Shown here: piece by piece, positions 16,602-40,248 of the stretch
Layout of the letters: each line of letters begins with the position of its first letter
Numbering within the stretch: the stretch's first letter is position 1
The notes under the pieces: generated by a model
Seen by the model: the letters and a program-made list of their open reading frames with translations, nothing else
Told to the model about the DNA's origin: nothing
Database searches by the model: none
NCBI GenBank assembly: GCA_020344555.1
Contig: CP070827.1
Location: forward strand, 3,159,828-3,202,443
Direction of reading: 5' to 3'
Length of the DNA: 42,616 nt
From: Phycisphaerales bacterium
GTDB lineage: Bacteria; Planctomycetota; Phycisphaerae; UBA1845
Position numbers and translations under genes: made by a program

Positions 16602-16797
16602 AGCGTTCGTGTTTTACGTGTAGCGGCAGGTCCCATGCCGGCCGTAGCCTCCCCGTCAATGACCTCGTCGTAGCGGAACCCCGACGGGCGTCCCGATGCA
16701 CGCCATGCGGAGTCGCCGTGTTGACCACATTCCTTGACTGACAGATGAGCGGAGGCAGGTGACTGTTTCGCCTGCTTTCAGGCTCTACAATGGTGGG

Positions 16798-17382
16798 ATG
16801 ACCCTCGAAGACCATTTGGCCTGCCCGAAATGTGGGTACGATCTCCACGGTATCCCTGAGGTTCGATGCCCCGAGTGTGGCTTCCGGTATGACGCGGCGG
16901 CGTTGCGTTCGATGGCGGCCTCGGCCGAATGGATACGGCTCGTCGCCGCTCGGATGCTGATTGTACGAGCCACCTTGGCAGCCGCCCTGACGATACCGGC
17001 CGTCTTGGATCATCTGGGCATCAGTGGTCTCAGCTTTTTCTGTGTGACCGCCGTAGCGTATTTGGCGGCATTCTTGACTTGGGCCGTACTCACAGATGTA
17101 TACACGGGGCCCACATCGATTCCGACCCTGCTCGTGGTGCTCCTCGGCTTTGGCGCGTTCATCAGGTGCATCGGGCACGCAGGGCCATGGGTCTCCCTTG
17201 CGGCTGGTGCAGTGTTCCTCCTCCTTGCGTGGATGGTACGCATCCGCTATTGGCCGACGTTGCCTCCTCCGAGCAACACACCATCCACTGAGCTGCGACG
17301 TTCGGTGGTTCGTCATAGCGTCGCTGGGACCGTCCTCCTCCTCGTCGCTTCGCTCCTCGTGGTGATTGTCCTCGTGCGGTAG
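16798..17382 (+). CDS. membrane protein with N-terminal zinc ribbon (CPKCGYDLHG-x6-CPECG)
   Basis: ORF 16759..17382 from a GTG. The ATG at 16798 gives MTLEDHLACPKCGYDLHGIPEVRCPECGFRYD, followed by four or five hydrophobic helices. The start choice is uncertain. Confidence 0.65.
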   Translation: MTLEDHLACPKCGYDLHGIPEVRCPECGFRYDAAALRSMAASAEWIRLVAARMLIVRATLAAALTIPAVLDHLGISGLSFFCVTAVAYLAAFLTWAVLTDVYTGPTSIPTLLVVLLGFGAFIRCIGHAGPWVSLAAGAVFLLLAWMVRIRYWPTLPPPSNTPSTELRRSVVRHSVAGTVLLLVASLLVVIVLVR

Positions 17383-17786
17383 GGCCCTCTTATTCCCACT
17401 CGGGAGGAAAGGGGGTCGGGAGTCGCGTCTTGCTGCTCGGCTGCCACGAGCGAGTCACGGAGTGACGACAGAGGCTAGTCCATAGCCGGAGCCAGGGGAG
17501 AGCAGGTTGCGCAGGCCAGGACAAAGCTCCGCACGGGCCGATACAGCCTTGTCCTCGCGAGAAGATGTGTCGTCCCTATCGGGGTCTCCCGCAAATGGAC
17601 GGGCTCGCATCCCGTGGCTTACACCAATGGGCTAAAGCCGATCGTCCCGGCGAGCCGGAACTTGAGCACACGGCATATTCCAACGGCCTGCTTGCACCAA
17701 TACCGCAGATGCGCTTACCTCGTTCCGTGACCATACACTGGCGGGGTCAACGCCGGCGGACCAGCGCGACCCCTCGTCACGAAAAA

Positions 17787-17946
17787 GTAGAATGTCCCGA
17801 ATGGCACTGCCTTAGCTCTTGGGGCCTCAGCAGGGGTCCTTGGGGTCTCTCTGGGCGCGCCCGGGGGTCGTCGTGTACGCCTAACGAGTCCCATGCCCCC
17901 CGTAACAGGGCGAAAAACCGCGGCAGTGCCATTCGTAGAATGTCCC
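17787..17946. other. composite repeat: direct GTAGAATGTCCC copies flanking a 13-bp inverted repeat that closes a ~135-nt G+C-rich segment
   Basis: GTAGAATGTCCC is at 17787-17798 and 17934-17945. GAATGGCACTGCC at 17799-17811 is the exact reverse complement of GGCAGTGCCATTC at 17921-17933. Confidence 0.6.
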
Positions 17947-18001
17947 CTTTCTCCTCTCAGGGTGATAATGCCCGGACGTGATCTGGACTGATTGAAACGA
18001 A

Positions 18002-18340
18002 AGGAGCCTGTTCGGCGAAACTGGTCCCTTAAAGACCTTCCGCTCGCCGGGGCGGCTCGTGGCCTTCTACGGGCTGGACCTGATGGTCTTTCAGACTGGG
18101 CAGTACGGCGCAGCACGACGCCGCATCAGCAAACCCGGATCGCCGGCCCTGCGGAACACGATGTGGTAGATGGCCCATCGGGCATGCTACCAAGAGGGCG
18201 ACCTGCGCGACTACCGGCTGCGCCGCAAGGGCGAGGGTCTATCCCACCGCTCAGCAGTGACCGCCCCGGGCATCAAGCTCTGCCACGCGACTTGGCGCAT
18301 CATGCCCGATCGCCGCGACTACCAGACCCAGCGGCCGACG
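18002..18340 (+). pseudogene. IS110-family transposase remnant (C-terminal third only, with an in-frame TAG)
   Basis: One frame reads ...FRSPGRLVAFYGLDLMVFQTGQYGAARRRISKPGSPALRNTMW*MAHRACYQEGDLRDYRLRRKGEGLSHRSAVTAPGIKLCHATWRIMPDRRDY. This matches the IS110 C-terminal pattern (aaYaGLxPxxxxSG...RISKxGxxxLR...yyxRlxxkGk...AxvAxaRKL). The TAG is at 18167-18169. No DEDD N-terminal domain was found upstream. Confidence 0.7.
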
Positions 18341-18430
18341 CCCAACTCCCGAGGAACCTGCAAGTGCCAAAGAGCAAACGAACGAAATTCTTCTACTTTA
18401 CCCTTGACTGCCTATAGCTGGTCTTTTCCG

Positions 18431-18898
18431 TTACGCAATCGTTGAATTCCGCACAGGCGTGCCGCACTCTGAGCAAAGGTCGGAAACGCTACCCCTGAGG
18501 TCGTAGCCGCATCGGATGCATAATCCGTGGGTCCGGCGGCGCCACCGTCGGGCTCGCCTCGCGCCAGAGATAGCCGGAAATGCTGCCGACAACCCGAAGA
18601 GCGCCCAGAACGGGACGGCGATCCAGATGATCTGGTCCCCGTCGTCCCTCTTGGGTATGTGTATTGCTGCCACTTCGAACCCCAAAAATGAGTGCAATTC
18701 CACAGGAATCTCGCCCTGGTCAAGCAGAGGCACGAAGTACGAACGAACGCACCGTGACGTCATTTGTATAGTGAGGCCCGTGGTACCGACATTGCAGCGT
18801 AGCCACCGCGGAGCAATCGAAGACGCCAGCCAAAGGGTCGAAACGACCACTAAGCACGCCGCACCCGACAGAACCTTAAGTCGGCTCAACACTCCCAA
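18431..18898 (-). CDS. small two-helix membrane protein with C-terminal zinc ribbon (CIRCGYDLRG-x5-CSECG); candidate immunity protein
   Basis: 155-aa ORF from TTG 18898, or GTG 18892 with a better-spaced GAGGG. It has an N-terminal helix, a second helix IIWIAVPFWALFGLSAAFPAI, the Arg-rich stretch RRARRWRRR, then the ribbon. It starts 77 bp downstream of the Rhs tip on the same strand. Confidence 0.6.
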   Translation of the reverse strand: MGVLSRLKVLSGAACLVVVSTLWLASSIAPRWLRCNVGTTGLTIQMTSRCVRSYFVPLLDQGEIPVELHSFLGFEVAAIHIPKRDDGDQIIWIAVPFWALFGLSAAFPAISGARRARRWRRRTHGLCIRCGYDLRGSVSDLCSECGTPVRNSTIA

Positions 18899-18974
18899 CC
18901 CTCGTGAACGAAAAGCGTAGCTTCCTTATTCCCCGTAGACTGGAAGACCTTGGGCTCCCGCGAGTCTTCAGCAT

Positions 18975-19790
18975 TCACACGGGACACAGCTCACACTCTT
19001 CTGTTGACTGTATAATAAATTGCCCCGTTGGCTCTGGTTCTTCGCGGTCGACGAACTCCCAGTCACAAACTTCTGTCCACGTAAAAAGTGTGAACGGTCG
19101 AGGACAGTCGCCACAAACACGGTGTATCTCACAATCCAATCCCCGCACTATCGCCTCCTCACACCCGTATGTGTATGTGTAGCACGGTATAGGAGAATCA
19201 TCCTCATTACAACCGGGAACGAAGCGAGTCAGGTTTCTCCGGATAAGCACGCAATTGATCAACGTCATCCACTCTTCAGGTTGGCAGTTTTGATGATGTA
19301 AGTACCCGAGGAGGAAACCCCCCTCACATTCCCGGCCTGAAGGATCCCTGGATGATAGAGGGCGTCCGCGCACATAGACATACGAGTCCATGCCATCTTG
19401 GTACGCACTCCTATCACCGTGTGTCACGTCGTACGGGTCGCGCTGCACGAACCGTCTCTTGCCGGGATCATACTGCCTGGTCCGGTTCTGGTAGCTCCTG
19501 ATCTCCGGTTCATGGAGCAGGCCCTGGTGCCCGAAGGGTTGGTCGACGGCGGTGGCGATGCGGCCGGGGTGGCGGGCTAATCCTTGAGGCAGTGGGTTGA
19601 ACAGGCCTGCATCGGTCGAGTCGTAGTCGCCATCGAAGTCCAGGTCCAGGATGCGGCACGCGCCCGACACGGTTCCTGTGCACGTGCTGCCCGGCGTGCC
19701 CTTGTCCGTGGCGTCCACGTCGCCGTCACCGTCGCGGTCCCCGTAGCCCGTTTCCTGATACACGGTCATCTCACCGTAGGGGCTGAGCAC
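18975..19790 (-). CDS. Rhs/YD-repeat core end plus Cys-rich C-terminal tip of unknown type (remaining ORF of a truncated rhs gene)
   Basis: The Rhs-associated core signature is FGHQGLLHEPEIRSYQNRTRQYDPGKRRFVQRDPY...YVYVRGRPLSSRDPSG. It is followed by ~118 aa with 14 Cys. The listed ORF begins at GTG 19790 only because the upstream frame is broken. Confidence 0.75.
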   Translation of the reverse strand: MLSPYGEMTVYQETGYGDRDGDGDVDATDKGTPGSTCTGTVSGACRILDLDFDGDYDSTDAGLFNPLPQGLARHPGRIATAVDQPFGHQGLLHEPEIRSYQNRTRQYDPGKRRFVQRDPYDVTHGDRSAYQDGMDSYVYVRGRPLSSRDPSGRECEGGFLLGYLHHQNCQPEEWMTLINCVLIRRNLTRFVPGCNEDDSPIPCYTYTYGCEEAIVRGLDCEIHRVCGDCPRPFTLFTWTEVCDWEFVDREEPEPTGQFIIQSTEECELCPV

Positions 19791-20110
19791 ATAGCACTCG
19801 ACCAGGCTGCTTCCGAGGTCGATCAGGCCGATGACGTTCCAGTTGGCATCCTGGTGGACGTAAGGTCGCCCTTGCCTTTCACCCGGATCATGACCAGCTC
19901 GTCAATATACTGCGTCCCGTGGGTGAACTGCTGATGATACGTCGTTTGCTCACCGAGACGCGTCTCCACGATCTTCTGACCATCATAATAATACCGGGTC
20001 ACGGCGTCAAAGTCGCCGGAATTTGTAACGCTTTTTTTGATCCGCCGGCCTCTCCCGTCGAATTCGGCGGTCTGGAAGGTGACGGCATCAAATGGCGGAT
20101 CTGTTGCCCC
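19791..20110 (-). pseudogene. upstream Rhs/YD-repeat fragment, frameshifted relative to 18975..19790 and truncated at its 5' end
   Basis: My minus-strand translation gives VGATDPPFDAVTFQTAEFDGRGRRIKKSVTNSGDFDAVTRYYYDGQKIVETRLGEQTTYHQQFTHGTQYIDELVMIRVKGKGD. Another frame then continues RPYVHQDANWNVIGLIDLGSSLVECYVLSPYGEMTVY. An in-frame TAG sits immediately upstream at about 20111-20113. Confidence 0.7.
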
Positions 20111-20134
20111 GACCTACTTGACTCCAGCGAGTTG

Positions 20135-20989
20135 CTAGCGCGTTTGCCGTTTCTGCGAGAGGATGACTATCAAGTCGCCCCTCGCACCGTCCGTACCGCC
20201 CTCCAGCGACGAGTAGAACTCCACTTCACCAAACCCACACTCGGCCAGCAAGGAGCGATACTGCTCATCGGTATACGCCTGCACGCTTGCCGAGTGGCGC
20301 GATACCTCGCCTGTCATCGAATCGATGACATAATAGCGTTCGATGCCTACGTTGCTCTCGGCATCCCAGAAAGGCTCCTGAAGGCACAGGTGCGGCTGAT
20401 CCGAGAACAATCCACTCTCGGCGGAGTACCACGAAGATGACCGCTCTCCCATCTTGCGGACTATCTCAAAGGTATGTGGCTCGAGAAGCAGAAGGCCGTG
20501 TGGCATCAAAGCCTCATGGGCTTTCCCGAGAATACCGCTCGCGTCCGCCGGGCGAAAGACGTTAAACTCGCCGAAGATGAGCAGGACGAGGTCATAACCG
20601 CGACCGTAGTCTGCAGTCCGAATGTCCTGCTGAACGTACGTGCATGGAAGACCGTCCTTCTCAGCCTGCCCCTTGGCGTGGGCTATCGAAGCTGGAGAGA
20701 AGTCAATGCCGACACACTGATGCCCAAGCCTCGCCAGCCGGTTGCAATACAATCCCGGGCCGCAGCCCAGATCGAGAATCCGCGACGGATTCCCCTTCAA
20801 AACCTGATTGTGAATCCACTTTACGTGGTTATCAATGGTCTTGAAACGACGACTGGCGGCGTCGCCTTCCTGGGACAAATGCTCCTCGAGCATTCGCCTA
20901 CTGAAGCTCGGATCATCCCAGGGAATCTTCTCCCCCTCCGCCCATGGTTTTGGGACACCCTTCCTGCGAACAACATCCAACAGGTTCAC
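20135..20989 (-). CDS. class I SAM-dependent methyltransferase
   Basis: Motif I ILDLGCGPGLYCNRLARLGHQCVGIDFS, then an acidic post-I residue and DLVLLIFGEFNVF (motif II/III-like). Confidence 0.85.
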   Translation of the reverse strand: MNLLDVVRRKGVPKPWAEGEKIPWDDPSFSRRMLEEHLSQEGDAASRRFKTIDNHVKWIHNQVLKGNPSRILDLGCGPGLYCNRLARLGHQCVGIDFSPASIAHAKGQAEKDGLPCTYVQQDIRTADYGRGYDLVLLIFGEFNVFRPADASGILGKAHEALMPHGLLLLEPHTFEIVRKMGERSSSWYSAESGLFSDQPHLCLQEPFWDAESNVGIERYYVIDSMTGEVSRHSASVQAYTDEQYRSLLAECGFGEVEFYSSLEGGTDGARGDLIVILSQKRQTR

Positions 20990-21221: not shown

Positions 21222-21974
21222 TCATACTTCGGCCTTCACGGTGTGGGCACGCCAGAGACACAGCATGACGACGGAGGCACAGCCCGCGATCACGCAAATG
21301 AGCTGCGACATGGAGAAAGACCCGACGGTCAGTGAACGTTCACTCAGGTCGGCCCTCCAGAGCTCGCAAGCGGCCCGTCCCAGGCCGTAGATGGACAAAA
21401 ACCACACCAACATCGTCCCTCGCCAGCGCTCATGGTTGAAGACCTTGAAGGCCCAAAGGACACATACCAGGAACAGCACTTCGTAGGTCTGTGTCGGATG
21501 CAGCGGCACGCCCGGCGGTGCAGCGGCGGCGCCCGCAGGGAATGTGATCGCCCAGGGCATGAAACAGGGTCGTCCATAACAACAGCCATTAAAAAGACAG
21601 CCGAGTTTGGTCAGGATCATGGGGATGGGAAGCGGTAACGCAACGAGATCGAGTGCTGCGCGTCTGCGCTTCGCCAGAATCAACGCAAGCGGCACGCCCA
21701 GGACAAGATACGCCAACACCCCGCCCCAGAGCCCTCCGGCCAGGTAATGCTCGGGAGTCAGCAATGCCCACAGGCTGAATTGGTCGTGCTGAACGTCGTA
21801 CAGCAGCTTGGCTCCGGTGGTCATGCCGGCCAGATAGCTCAGGCTCAGGACGATCCAGACGCGATGCCGCACTTGGAGGCGCTTGGCGATCAAATAACTG
21901 AGCAGCGAGTAGATTAGAATACTCGTAAAGTACAGGGCGGTCCACGTCGTAAGCGGTCCAAGATGCCGCCACAT
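21222..21974 (-). CDS. lgt: prolipoprotein diacylglyceryl transferase-like
   Basis: ORF 21222..22274. The ATG at 21974 starts the hydrophobic part. Lgt-like blocks are present: LGCLFNGCCYGRP (compare GNFxNGExxG), HPTQTYEVLF (compare HPxQLYE) and YGLGRAACELWRAD (compare GRFxxExxRxD). Confidence 0.72.
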   Translation of the reverse strand: MWRHLGPLTTWTALYFTSILIYSLLSYLIAKRLQVRHRVWIVLSLSYLAGMTTGAKLLYDVQHDQFSLWALLTPEHYLAGGLWGGVLAYLVLGVPLALILAKRRRAALDLVALPLPIPMILTKLGCLFNGCCYGRPCFMPWAITFPAGAAAAPPGVPLHPTQTYEVLFLVCVLWAFKVFNHERWRGTMLVWFLSIYGLGRAACELWRADLSERSLTVGSFSMSQLICVIAGCASVVMLCLWRAHTVKAEV

Positions 21975-22255
21975 TTGTCTTATCCGCGATGATCCACCTG
22001 TTGAACGTCTGGCCGCCATTCTACCCGGACCGGCCGGCCACCCGAAAGTGCCTATCGCTAGGCCTGCCGCCCGATCGCCGGGTTCATACTGGCCGTGGCC
22101 GAGATAGCGGCACGGCGAACCACTGGAAACGCTCAAGGCTCGAGGTCGAAGATCCGAGCCAAGGTGCAATCGCAGCAACCAGCCTGCCCGGCACCACAAT
22201 CGGCCTGGCCCGGCAGGTGATCTCGGCGGCCCGGGCGGTATCGACAACTTCTTAC

Positions 22256-22284
22256 TTGACAGCCTACTAGGCATGTAGTAATAT
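22256..22284 (+). promoter_or_regulatory. near-consensus sigma70-type promoter (TTGACA-17-TAATAT) with an embedded dyad, a likely autoregulatory operator
   Basis: TTGACA is at 22256-22261 and TAATAT at 22279-22284. The spacer contains TACTA-ggcatg-TAGTA, and TAGTAATA recurs about 20 bp downstream. GGAGG at 22304-22308 precedes the ATG at 22314. Confidence 0.6.
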
Positions 22285-38954: not shown

Positions 38955-40040
38955 TCAGGGCTGCGCCGCCATGGGCTTTGCATGCGTTACGGTAAACGGA
39001 CTGGAAAGTGGCGGCAGGCTGTGCTCGGCTCGCAACTGGTTTTGAGCGGGCAGCATGTCGACCAGCTTCAACGCCTGTGCCTGTATCACCTTACCGCTGA
39101 CAAGTCCGATCGGGATCACGTCCTGTGGCTGGAGCCGTGGGTTCTGACCCGGATCCGGTGACCAGATAACAAGCCACAGGTTCGGATCGGCGCCGGGAAG
39201 ATCAACGCCGTGGTGGGTGAACACGAAGTCGCCAAGGCGATGGGCAACGGTTCGGCGTGGGAGAGCTTCGGCGGCCATTCGGACGACCGTCTCCTTTCGC
39301 TCGACCGACAGCTCGTCGAACTGTGACAGACTGATGTCAGCTAGAGGCACGGACTCCGCGCTGGTCAAGGAATCGAACGAGACGAAGTCGGCGGAGACAA
39401 GGTGGCCATCGAGTGCCATCCCTATGGCGTGATCAAGGGGGAGGCCGCTATTGCCTTGGGAATATGCAACCAGGGCGTTCAGCAATTTTCTTGTTTCAGC
39501 GGCGTAGACCGGGCGCGCTTGCGCCATGTACAGGGTCAGCCCCACGCCCAGGACGGTGCCCAGGAACAGCAACGCGGCTATGATTACGACGAGCCGGGCA
39601 TGGCGGCCGCGTCGGGCAAGGCGCTCGGTGTCTTCATCGTGTTTCGCCCGTGCGACTCGGGCCGTATCGGCCGCGCTGAACTCCAGCCCGCATTCGGGGC
39701 AACGGGGATCAACCTGACCCTGCAGATCGTAACCACAGCGATGACATCGAAACCCTCGACGTTCGAGGACACGGGCGCGCTCGAAGAGAAGAAAATACGG
39801 GACCCATACCGCCAGGAATATCAACAGCACAATGGGGAGGTCCCAGCTCAGGGGGACCCTCACGATCGATGTCACTGACAATAAGATGATAATCAACACG
39901 GCGACGCCAAGGAGGCGCCGGCGCACGTTAACGCCCAAAAGCGAGCCGCAACCGTTGCATGTCCAGCTCCCCCACGCCGTGGTGAAGAACACGCGACTCC
40001 ACGGAATCGGTTCGCGGCAGTTGGGGCATTCAATCGGCAT
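38955..40040 (-). CDS. membrane protein with two zinc ribbons (CPNC...CNGC and CHRCGYDLQG-x5-CPECG) and a C-terminal extracytoplasmic domain
   Basis: ORF 38955..40205. The ATG at 40040 gives MPIECPNCREPIPW... It has two helices, a second ribbon, a third helix LVVIIAALLFLGTVLGVGLTLY, then ~200 aa of soluble domain. Confidence 0.65.
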   Translation of the reverse strand: MPIECPNCREPIPWSRVFFTTAWGSWTCNGCGSLLGVNVRRRLLGVAVLIIILLSVTSIVRVPLSWDLPIVLLIFLAVWVPYFLLFERARVLERRGFRCHRCGYDLQGQVDPRCPECGLEFSAADTARVARAKHDEDTERLARRGRHARLVVIIAALLFLGTVLGVGLTLYMAQARPVYAAETRKLLNALVAYSQGNSGLPLDHAIGMALDGHLVSADFVSFDSLTSAESVPLADISLSQFDELSVERKETVVRMAAEALPRRTVAHRLGDFVFTHHGVDLPGADPNLWLVIWSPDPGQNPRLQPQDVIPIGLVSGKVIQAQALKLVDMLPAQNQLRAEHSLPPLSSPFTVTHAKPMAAQP

Positions 40041-40248
40041 TACTGAGTCTCCGGTGCTTCTTTGGCATTGCTCATTCTTCTCATAGGATACCTCACGCAA
40101 GTCAATCAGCCACAATGAAGACATGTTCTTACGCTGGAAGCCGCAGGTCCAAAACCGGTCAGCCATCCTCTCTTGACGCAACGACTTGACGTCGCTGCCG
40201 AACACGTGATGTGTGGTCCAGTGTCTCTAATGGAACCGCCCGAGGACG

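Follow-up and report, generated by a model that had tools for sequence, protein, structure and literature searches.

The stretch of Phycisphaerales DNA analyzed here (contig CP070827.1; hereafter the window, 42.6 kb in length) carries on its minus strand, at 18431..20137, the remnant of an Rhs polymorphic-toxin gene followed by a gene for a small, predicted membrane protein, which we call the partner (Table 1). The Rhs sequence, 20086..18978, corresponds to the final ~370 residues of an Rhs protein; it is truncated at its 5' end and interrupted by a 1-base deletion at 19862. Its core scores 45.8 bits against the NCBIfam model TIGR03696 (Rhs_assc_core; cut-off 32.5), and 252 relatives were found among 5.8 billion proteins, the best non-self match having an E value of ~1e-120. 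The named relatives come from metagenome-assembled genomes (MAGs) of Planctomycetota and Phycisphaerae and are labelled "RHS repeat-associated". A family profile made from 22 relatives matches the window in two frames, at profile positions 49-123 and 120-350, with nothing N-terminal of position 49. Given the TIGR03696 score, the 252 relatives and the match of the family hidden Markov model (HMM) to both frames, the assignment to the Rhs proteins is not a matter of chance. Identity between the relatives and the window sequence is 50-85% as far as the DPxG motif, and beyond it divergence is complete. An earlier sequence-only reading of this DNA had placed an Rhs core end and a tip of ~118 residues on the minus strand, and both are indeed there, the tip being 119 residues long.

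Translated from 20113, the window reads VGATDPPFDAVTFQTAEFDGRGRRIKK...TRYYYDGQKIVETR...KGKGDL, a YD-type sequence that also appears as ..DAVTFQTAEFDGRGRRIKK..TRYYYDGQK..KGKGDL; past 19862 the translation runs YVHQDANWNVIGL...YDPGKRRFVQRDPY...YVYVRGRPLSSRDPSG. The Pfam RHS_repeat model has no match in the window fragment and scores above threshold in two of the long Rhs open reading frames (ORFs) of more than 2400 aa described below. The core also holds an Asp-rich, calcium-binding-like insert at 19742..19611 (-), GDRDGDGDVDATD ... LDLDFDGDYDSTD, which is kept in all relatives and is not recognized by Pfam.

Comparison with other loci identifies the fragment as the end of a much longer protein. 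Using the Rhs core profile we collected 78 loci from species-representative genomes, and in several of the fetched loci (L005, L010, L016, L017, L029, L039, L042) the relatives are ORFs exceeding 2360-2500 aa. In these long ORFs, the stretch around residue 1850-2023 is where the first 170 residues of a 596-aa relative align. The short Rhs forms (300-700 aa) are C-terminal portions of the long ones with widely varying starting points, and they frequently occur in tandem with a small gene after each, as in L001 (Rhs482, 160 aa, Rhs490, 181 aa), L002 (Rhs491, 187 aa, Rhs392, 226 aa) and L035 (long Rhs, 216 aa, Rhs716, 272 aa). The window fragment has the makeup of an orphan cassette, namely a core piece with neither its 5' part nor a start codon, a tip, and a small ORF on the same strand. 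Of the long YD-repeat shell region and the N-terminal delivery region there is nothing, only profile positions 49-350 being represented, and no full-length rhs gene of the same family precedes it within the window. Its surroundings are housekeeping genes, with Lgt and a methyltransferase upstream on the same strand and M16 peptidases and BlaI/BlaR1 also nearby, and a scan of the window with the family profile found no second Rhs core fragment and no main rhs gene. With no main rhs gene ahead of it, the cassette counts as stranded, not as displaced.

The orphan Rhs module that had been proposed from sequence therefore holds up, given the truncation at profile position 49, the intact methyltransferase gene and the palindromic unit that abut it, the long relatives and the tandem short forms. 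Our data support the view that what survives here is an orphan cassette, stranded and degenerate, from a family of Phycisphaerae Rhs polymorphic toxins. The sequence-only reading had named a circumstance that would undo this conclusion, a full-length rhs gene broken by an assembly error alone. The single-base nature of the frameshift is the only point in its favor. Homology stops at 20086, the upstream side is occupied by the palindromic unit and by a complete ORF for a methyltransferase whose domain matches are full-length, and full-length relatives need some 2000 more residues; the sequence thus excludes such a gene, and we consider its probability negligible. Repair of the frameshift would still give no full rhs gene because the fragment is 5'-truncated and the short forms are C-terminal pieces of long ORFs.

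The frameshift predicted near 19860-19870 is present and consists of a single base missing from a short T run at 19862, where the window has GACCTTACGTCC and its relatives have GACCTTTACGTC or GACCTATACGTC in a DNA alignment to the two closest loci, L027 and L004. The relatives carry KGDLYVHQDANWNV unbroken across this position. Programmed frameshifting was ruled out by eye, there being no slippery heptamer. The window fragment (19862-20113) and its counterpart at L027:5974-6492 show a dN/dS of 0.09 at a dS of 0.59. Such a low ratio between two truncated copies may reflect either gene conversion with functional copies or fragments that are less dead than they appear.

The second of these options leads to a different account of the locus, in which the fragment is expressed from an internal start, the frameshift is an assembly error, and the tip and the downstream gene form an intracellular module resembling a toxin-antitoxin pair. 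An orphan rhs of Salmonella is reported to act as such a module (PMC7043789) and offers a precedent. In the window, the tip frame is open for 296 codons, a sigma-70-like site lies inside the fragment at 20010..19982, and a deletion in a T run is a typical long-read error, all of which would suit this account as does the dN/dS value. However, the promoter matches number 1 against 0.6 expected from shuffled sequences, gene conversion can explain the dN/dS equally, and a tip with 12 Cys combined with a periplasmic variable part is ill-suited to a cytoplasmic toxin-antitoxin pair. We therefore regard internal expression as quite improbable.

The gene downstream of the tip was correctly anticipated as a small ORF on the same strand, the gap measuring 76 nt (77 bp in the earlier reading). 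Judging from a GAGGG 6 nt upstream, GTG at 18892 is the likelier start and would give a protein of 153 aa, like the database entry P0121. The partner architecture comprises a short basic N-terminus, a first transmembrane helix (TM1), a variable loop, a second helix (TM2), an Arg-rich linker and then a zinc ribbon of the form CxxCGYxLxG..CxEC. An AlphaFold2 (AF2) model from an 11-sequence alignment places helices at residues 3-31 and 97-123 and shows the zinc ribbon with confidence; in the loop, the predicted local distance difference test score (pLDDT) is below 50. Across 19 partners of this architecture the density of Lys and Arg (K+R) is 0.20 ahead of TM1, falls to 0.11 in the loop and rises to 0.35 past TM2, a positive-inside pattern that predicts a topology with both termini in the cytoplasm and the loop in the periplasm. 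Compared pairwise, partners are on average 58% identical across the zinc ribbon, 21% across TM2 and the linker together, and 16% across the loop. A variable loop beside a conserved ribbon fits the pattern of a binding loop on a constant scaffold.

Table 1. Features of the orphan Rhs cassette and its borders in the window.
Feature	Position	Strand	Details
Methyltransferase ORF, intact	20135..20989	(-)	Methyltransf_25 6.7e-18; ends TAG
Degenerate REP-like hairpin unit, 5' edge of Rhs fragment	20094..20123	(-)	AGTCAA-GTAG-GTCGGGGC-AACA-GATCCGCC; includes in-frame TAG
Rhs core part A, frame 0	19862..20086	(-)	Profile positions 49-123, AVTFQTAEFDGRGRRIKK...KGKGDL; 5'-truncated, no start codon at beginning
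Frameshift site	19860..19864	(-)	1-base deletion vs all relatives: CCTTAC vs CCTTTAC or CCTATAC
Rhs core part B	19335..19861	(-)	TIGR03696 match 19550..19335; Asp-rich insert; DPSG
YDPGKRRFVQRDP within Rhs part B	19472..19434	(-)	
DPSG (SRDPSG) closing Rhs core	19346..19335	(-)	
Variable C-terminal tip	18978..19334	(-)	119 aa, 12 Cys; stop codon 18975-18977
Candidate immunity gene, 2-TM zinc-ribbon protein, 155 aa	18431..18898	(-)	76 nt downstream of Rhs stop
TM1 helix, aa 3-31	18806..18892	(-)	AF2 helix 3-31, pLDDT ~85; hydropathy 1.91
Variable loop, aa 32-89, ~60 residues, predicted periplasmic	18632..18805	(-)	Low K+R density; pLDDT <50
TM2 (VPFWALFGLSAAFP) and Arg-rich cytoplasmic linker (RRARRWRRRTHG), aa 90-126	18521..18631	(-)	Linker K+R density 0.35
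C-terminal zinc ribbon, CIRCGYDLRGSVSDLCSEC	18464..18520	(-)	pLDDT ~90; sub-threshold DZR matches

Genes of this kind recur behind Rhs tips. From the collected loci we took a non-redundant set of 72 Rhs core ends, each with its stop codon inside the locus, and called a partner wherever a same-strand ORF carried the motif CxxC-x-[YFWH]..G..CxxC near its C-terminus. Such an ORF stands behind 23 of the 72, starting between -51 and about +500 nt from the Rhs stop and often overlapping the Rhs gene. The partner architecture is found directly downstream in L001, L002 (twice), L004 (twice), L006, L007, L015, L019, L022, L023, L026, L034, L035, L037, L040, L043, L047, L061, L062, L070 and L085; in L001 it is a 160-aa protein, and in L002 both cassettes have one. 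The family HMM gave 43 unique matches in 726 kb, 27 of which start at -150..+700 nt from a core end. This zone makes up 4.2% of the strand-space and would be expected to hold 1.8 matches (binomial P = 1e-26; ~15-fold enrichment), and several of the remaining 16 matches are likewise close to Rhs fragments. Cassettes with a partner were found in at least 17 assemblies, and the partner is thus a gene found directly downstream of the tip and recurring across genomes, as is looked for in an immunity gene.

The association depends on the tip, with a partner behind 21 of 46 Cys-rich tips (>=6% Cys) and 1 of 17 Cys-poor ones (Fisher p = 0.003). The sequence-only reading had considered a zinc-ribbon membrane protein unusual in the immunity position; in this Rhs family it is common, accompanying about one-third of all cassettes and ~45% of those with Cys-rich tips. 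Its proposal of the 155-aa product as candidate immunity protein is borne out as far as context goes (recurrence at P ~1e-26), and immunity itself is the probable role of the partner, to which its position and variability point.

The link to Cys-richness can also be read as the mark of an accessory factor for Cys-rich tips, be it a chaperone in the membrane, a helper in export or maturation, or a release factor, whose zinc ribbon holds the tip or hands it over. Such a role would account for an association with a general property of the tips that comes with no detectable class-specific covariation, as well as for the cytoplasmic TM2 and zinc-ribbon module being the conserved part. A helper would have no need of a hypervariable periplasmic loop, however, and the gene is kept beside fragments that cannot be exported (the window, L085) and in arrays devoid of toxin genes (L082). 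Moreover, known Rhs accessory genes (Eag, DUF4123-type adaptors) lie upstream of rhs genes, which also counts against this role, and we consider it unlikely.

Beyond the Rhs loci, the partner belongs to a very large family. Cluster representatives matched by a profile of the window partner and its nearest relatives number 70,332 at E<=1e-3, 31,966 at E<=1e-10 and 917 at E<=1e-30. The best family matches are mostly 170-205 aa long and aligned over their full length, and the weakest may be matches to the zinc ribbon alone. Comparison of the partner with Pfam, NCBIfam, PADLOC and PDB sequences yielded nothing but sub-threshold zinc-ribbon matches, and a literature search found no published description of the partner family or of Rhs immunity in Phycisphaerae. 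The paralogue-like relatives that had been suspected elsewhere in the window exist, bringing the motif-bearing ORFs there to three, and they place the CxxCGYDLxG..CPEC ribbon in other architectures: the product of 16759..17382 (+) has it N-terminally, ahead of ~4 TM helices, and the 416-aa product of 38955..40205 (-) has it at residue 160. Neither lies beside an Rhs fragment. Many family representatives of 330-400 aa (e.g. P0134-P0140) contain two full 2-TM zinc-ribbon copies and are either tandem fusions or merged gene calls.

This breadth raises the question of whether the partner is simply a general-purpose Planctomycetota membrane family, with a role in signalling or the envelope, for example, that hitch-hikes in mobile cassettes or marks a preferred insertion site and has no functional link to the tips. 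The ~32,000 clusters at E<=1e-10, the three motif-bearing ORFs in the window and the presence of the sequence-nearest members beside unrelated genes would all be natural on that account. It sits poorly with the ~15-fold enrichment, the tight or overlapping same-strand spacing and the recurrence in at least 17 assemblies, and with the almost exclusive pairing with Cys-rich tips. There is also an Rhs-linked subtype within the family, with the signature L-x-G-N-x-S-G-x-C-P-E-C, which has one extra residue between the Leu and the third Cys relative to the general LRATPERCPEC, and the window partner has the Rhs-linked spacing. We accordingly think a mere passenger role improbable.

A contig of the Tepidisphaeraceae illustrates how the family may occur on its own: L082:1968-5994 has at least four tandem 2-TM zinc-ribbon paralogues and no Rhs gene. 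These paralogues share the sequence LWVRSYF after TM1, one of them is without a zinc ribbon, and an ORF on the opposite strand has its zinc ribbon at the N-terminus. This array resembles an immunity island and could be one.

The tips themselves give some indication of where the toxins might act. A search with the window tip alone against the 5.8 billion proteins found no detectable homologue, and the tip has no Pfam match; its AF2 model, computed without an alignment, is unusable (pLDDT 31). The sole relative found is a weak one, P0052 (26% identity), on the metagenome contig L085, where a 5'-truncated Rhs gene lies beside a housekeeping gene and is overlapped by a gene for a 217-aa zinc-ribbon partner. 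Ten tips compared with Pfam gave only sub-threshold PLA2G12, AMOP and weak metallopeptidase matches plus DUF6973, each on tips other than that of the window. The motif HExxH recurs in Cys-rich tips (L007, L015, L023:8078-9496, L034, L070, L003:9959-11701, L001:3050-4534), several of which have EC-x-AY-x5-CL in addition. Tips of this class may be zincin-like metallopeptidases, and Pfam gave no match for the four that were tested. The phospholipase A2 signature CCxxHDxC(Y) is present in the tips L048:5890-7089, L056:3-977 and L003:4482-6224, the first of which scores 26.8 bits against PLA2G12 (cut-off 34, hence sub-threshold). Judging from their motifs, these tips would fit disulfide-rich toxins active on the membrane or in the periplasm.

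Taken together, the observations argue for the following interpretation, which we favor with reasonable but not high confidence: the Rhs fragment is a non-deliverable, decaying orphan with an intact tip allele, and the 155-aa protein is its cognate immunity protein. The fragment retains ~260 residues at the end of the Rhs core, the DPxG motif for processing and the intact tip; the shell and the delivery part are gone. Given that loss and the frameshift, the fragment presumably yields no deliverable toxin, and it would at most serve as a silent reservoir of a tip allele. We presume that the tips of this family are rich in disulfides and have the periplasm or the membrane as their site of action. 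The partner would sit in the inner membrane with its variable loop toward the periplasm, neutralizing or excluding the tip there, and the conserved TM2 and zinc-ribbon module would be the common scaffold. According to this view, the gene in the window would act as an orphan immunity gene that guards against neighbors still delivering this tip.

Several observations weigh against this interpretation. The partner family is huge and reaches far beyond the Rhs context, and the members closest in sequence to the window protein adjoin unrelated genes such as those for enzymes (L083, L137, L140). About two-thirds of the cassettes have different downstream genes, many of which also encode membrane proteins. 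Covariation between tips and partners was not detected (Mantel p = 0.46; HExxH tip class, p = 0.26), as every tip and loop pair has diverged too far for the test to work. Nor does an immunity role account for the strong conservation of the cytoplasmic zinc ribbon. The window tip has no recognizable toxin fold, and its toxicity, its site of action and protection by the partner are inferred. Finally, a dN/dS as low as the ~0.09 of the two truncated copies would be surprising in dead DNA, the window is without a main rhs gene, and the only other family member from a contig of the same length (5.25 Mb) among the 120 matches listed, P0041, is partial and just 65% identical.

The border of the cassette on the methyltransferase side is itself of interest. 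The YD sequence behind an in-frame TAG noted by the sequence-only reading is there, with the TAG at 20114-20116, 18 nt past the methyltransferase stop codon, and a YD-type reading following it. However, this TAG belongs to a unit resembling a repetitive extragenic palindromic (REP) element rather than to decayed coding sequence, and Rhs homology to the relatives starts only at ~20086, where they run on upstream with ...YDAWNRLVKV.... DNA similarity to the copies in L027 and L004 begins at 20123, 11 nt beyond the methyltransferase stop. The unit has the consensus GTAG-GTCGGGTC-AACA-GACCCGAC, and the leader of ~30 nt that is common to the three loci reads AGTC(A/G)A-GTAG-GTCGGGTC-AACA-GACCCG(A/G)C; at the boundary it forms a hairpin with an 8-bp stem and a 4-nt loop. 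The window holds one, degenerate copy. A metagenome scan for exact matches to the consensus unit found it on 51 contigs (L086-L136), at gene ends, as 28 inverted doublets and 34 singlets, the members of a doublet being 8-67 nt apart. In these contigs the unit is thus short, palindromic, repeated, extragenic and arranged in inverted doublets, as REP and REPIN elements are. An identity of the boundary repeat with an integron attC site was ruled out by eye, as its arms do not fit RYYYAAC/GTTRRRY, and there is no tRNA or Rfam match marking an integration site at the locus.

The REP-to-Rhs junction of the window recurs at L027:5964 and L004:3385, loci that both come from the MAG CSMAG_2662, and the upstream flanks are unrelated in the three loci. 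The L004 copy is a third copy and is interrupted by an insertion sequence: a 564-aa ORF, transposase-like by eye, at L004:3624-5318 splits it ~240 nt past the REP junction. In all three fragments the Rhs sequence meets the REP-like unit at the identical nucleotide, which suggests that the junction arose once in an ancestor and was later placed in three different neighborhoods. Recombination at REP units is a possible route for this movement.

How the locus relates to known systems depends on the part considered. The Rhs cassette is unexceptional and degenerate, and belongs to a type already familiar from the orphan rhs-CT/rhsI cassettes described in Enterobacteria (Poole et al. 2011, PMC3150448; Koskiniemi et al. 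2014, PMC3967940). Like them, it has a 5'-truncated core piece, a DPxG-delimited tip and a small same-strand gene directly downstream, and its relatives form tandem arrays behind long rhs genes as the enterobacterial orphans do. Unlike them, the window copy has housekeeping genes on both sides and a REP-like unit at its start instead of a main rhs gene ahead of it, and its Phycisphaerae family is distinguished by an Asp-rich core insert, Cys-rich tips and the membrane zinc-ribbon partner. The REP-like unit shares with REP and REPIN elements (Bertels and Rainey 2011, PMC3116915; PMC3337134) a length of ~24 nt, the stem-loop dimensions, the location at gene ends and the inverted doublets, and differs from them in the window in being single, degenerate and fused to a coding fragment.

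Immunity proteins of pore-forming colicins and the Tsi proteins of type VI secretion systems (T6SS) are located where the toxin acts, at the inner membrane or in the periplasm. The predicted location of the partner is the same, but there is no homology to them. Another parallel is provided by the two-TM immunity proteins Imm17 and Imm-CdiI, an established kind with a presumed site of action at the membrane (Zhang et al. 2012, PMC3482391). The partner resembles these in being small, in having two TM helices and in being encoded after a polymorphic toxin tip. It differs from them in that no sequence relationship was found, in the length of its inter-helix loop (60-130 aa in the partner family) and in the conserved Arg-rich linker and C4 zinc ribbon that follow TM2. 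The term "Zn-ribbon" occurs once in the main text of PMC3482391, concerning fusions to PrsW peptidases and not immunity proteins. The conserved cytoplasmic zinc ribbon is an addition to the accepted two-TM immunity type, and the partner is a new variant.

With the statistical tie to Cys-rich Rhs tips in Phycisphaerae, a very large family without curated description gains a first contextual lead to its function. If it is indeed an immunity family, two TM helices plus a cytoplasmic zinc ribbon would be a new membrane-anchored architecture for polymorphic-toxin immunity, an action of these planctomycete Rhs tips in the periplasm or on the membrane would be suggested, part of the conspicuous paralogue expansion in Planctomycetota genomes would be explained, and directly testable toxin/immunity pairs would be at hand. 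One could go further and propose that the whole zinc-ribbon 2-TM superfamily is a Planctomycetota immunity superfamily directed against periplasm-acting, Cys-rich Rhs tips. Tandem arrays like that of L082 would then represent immunity islands, capture of the toxin in the periplasm would be linked to a response in the cytoplasm through the invariant cytoplasmic zinc ribbon, and the REP-like units would be the joints by which orphan cassettes are moved around the genome. We offer this wider proposal as speculation and doubt that all of its parts will prove true together.

Two minor observations concern the flanks. In the ~1 kb downstream of the partner gene (17383..18430) there is no convincing ORF, tRNA or Rfam match, nor any similarity to the fetched loci. 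On the other side, the Lgt ORF at 21222-22274 (-) has a ~100-aa N-terminal extension ahead of its LGT domain (residues 109-339), and its true start may be internal.

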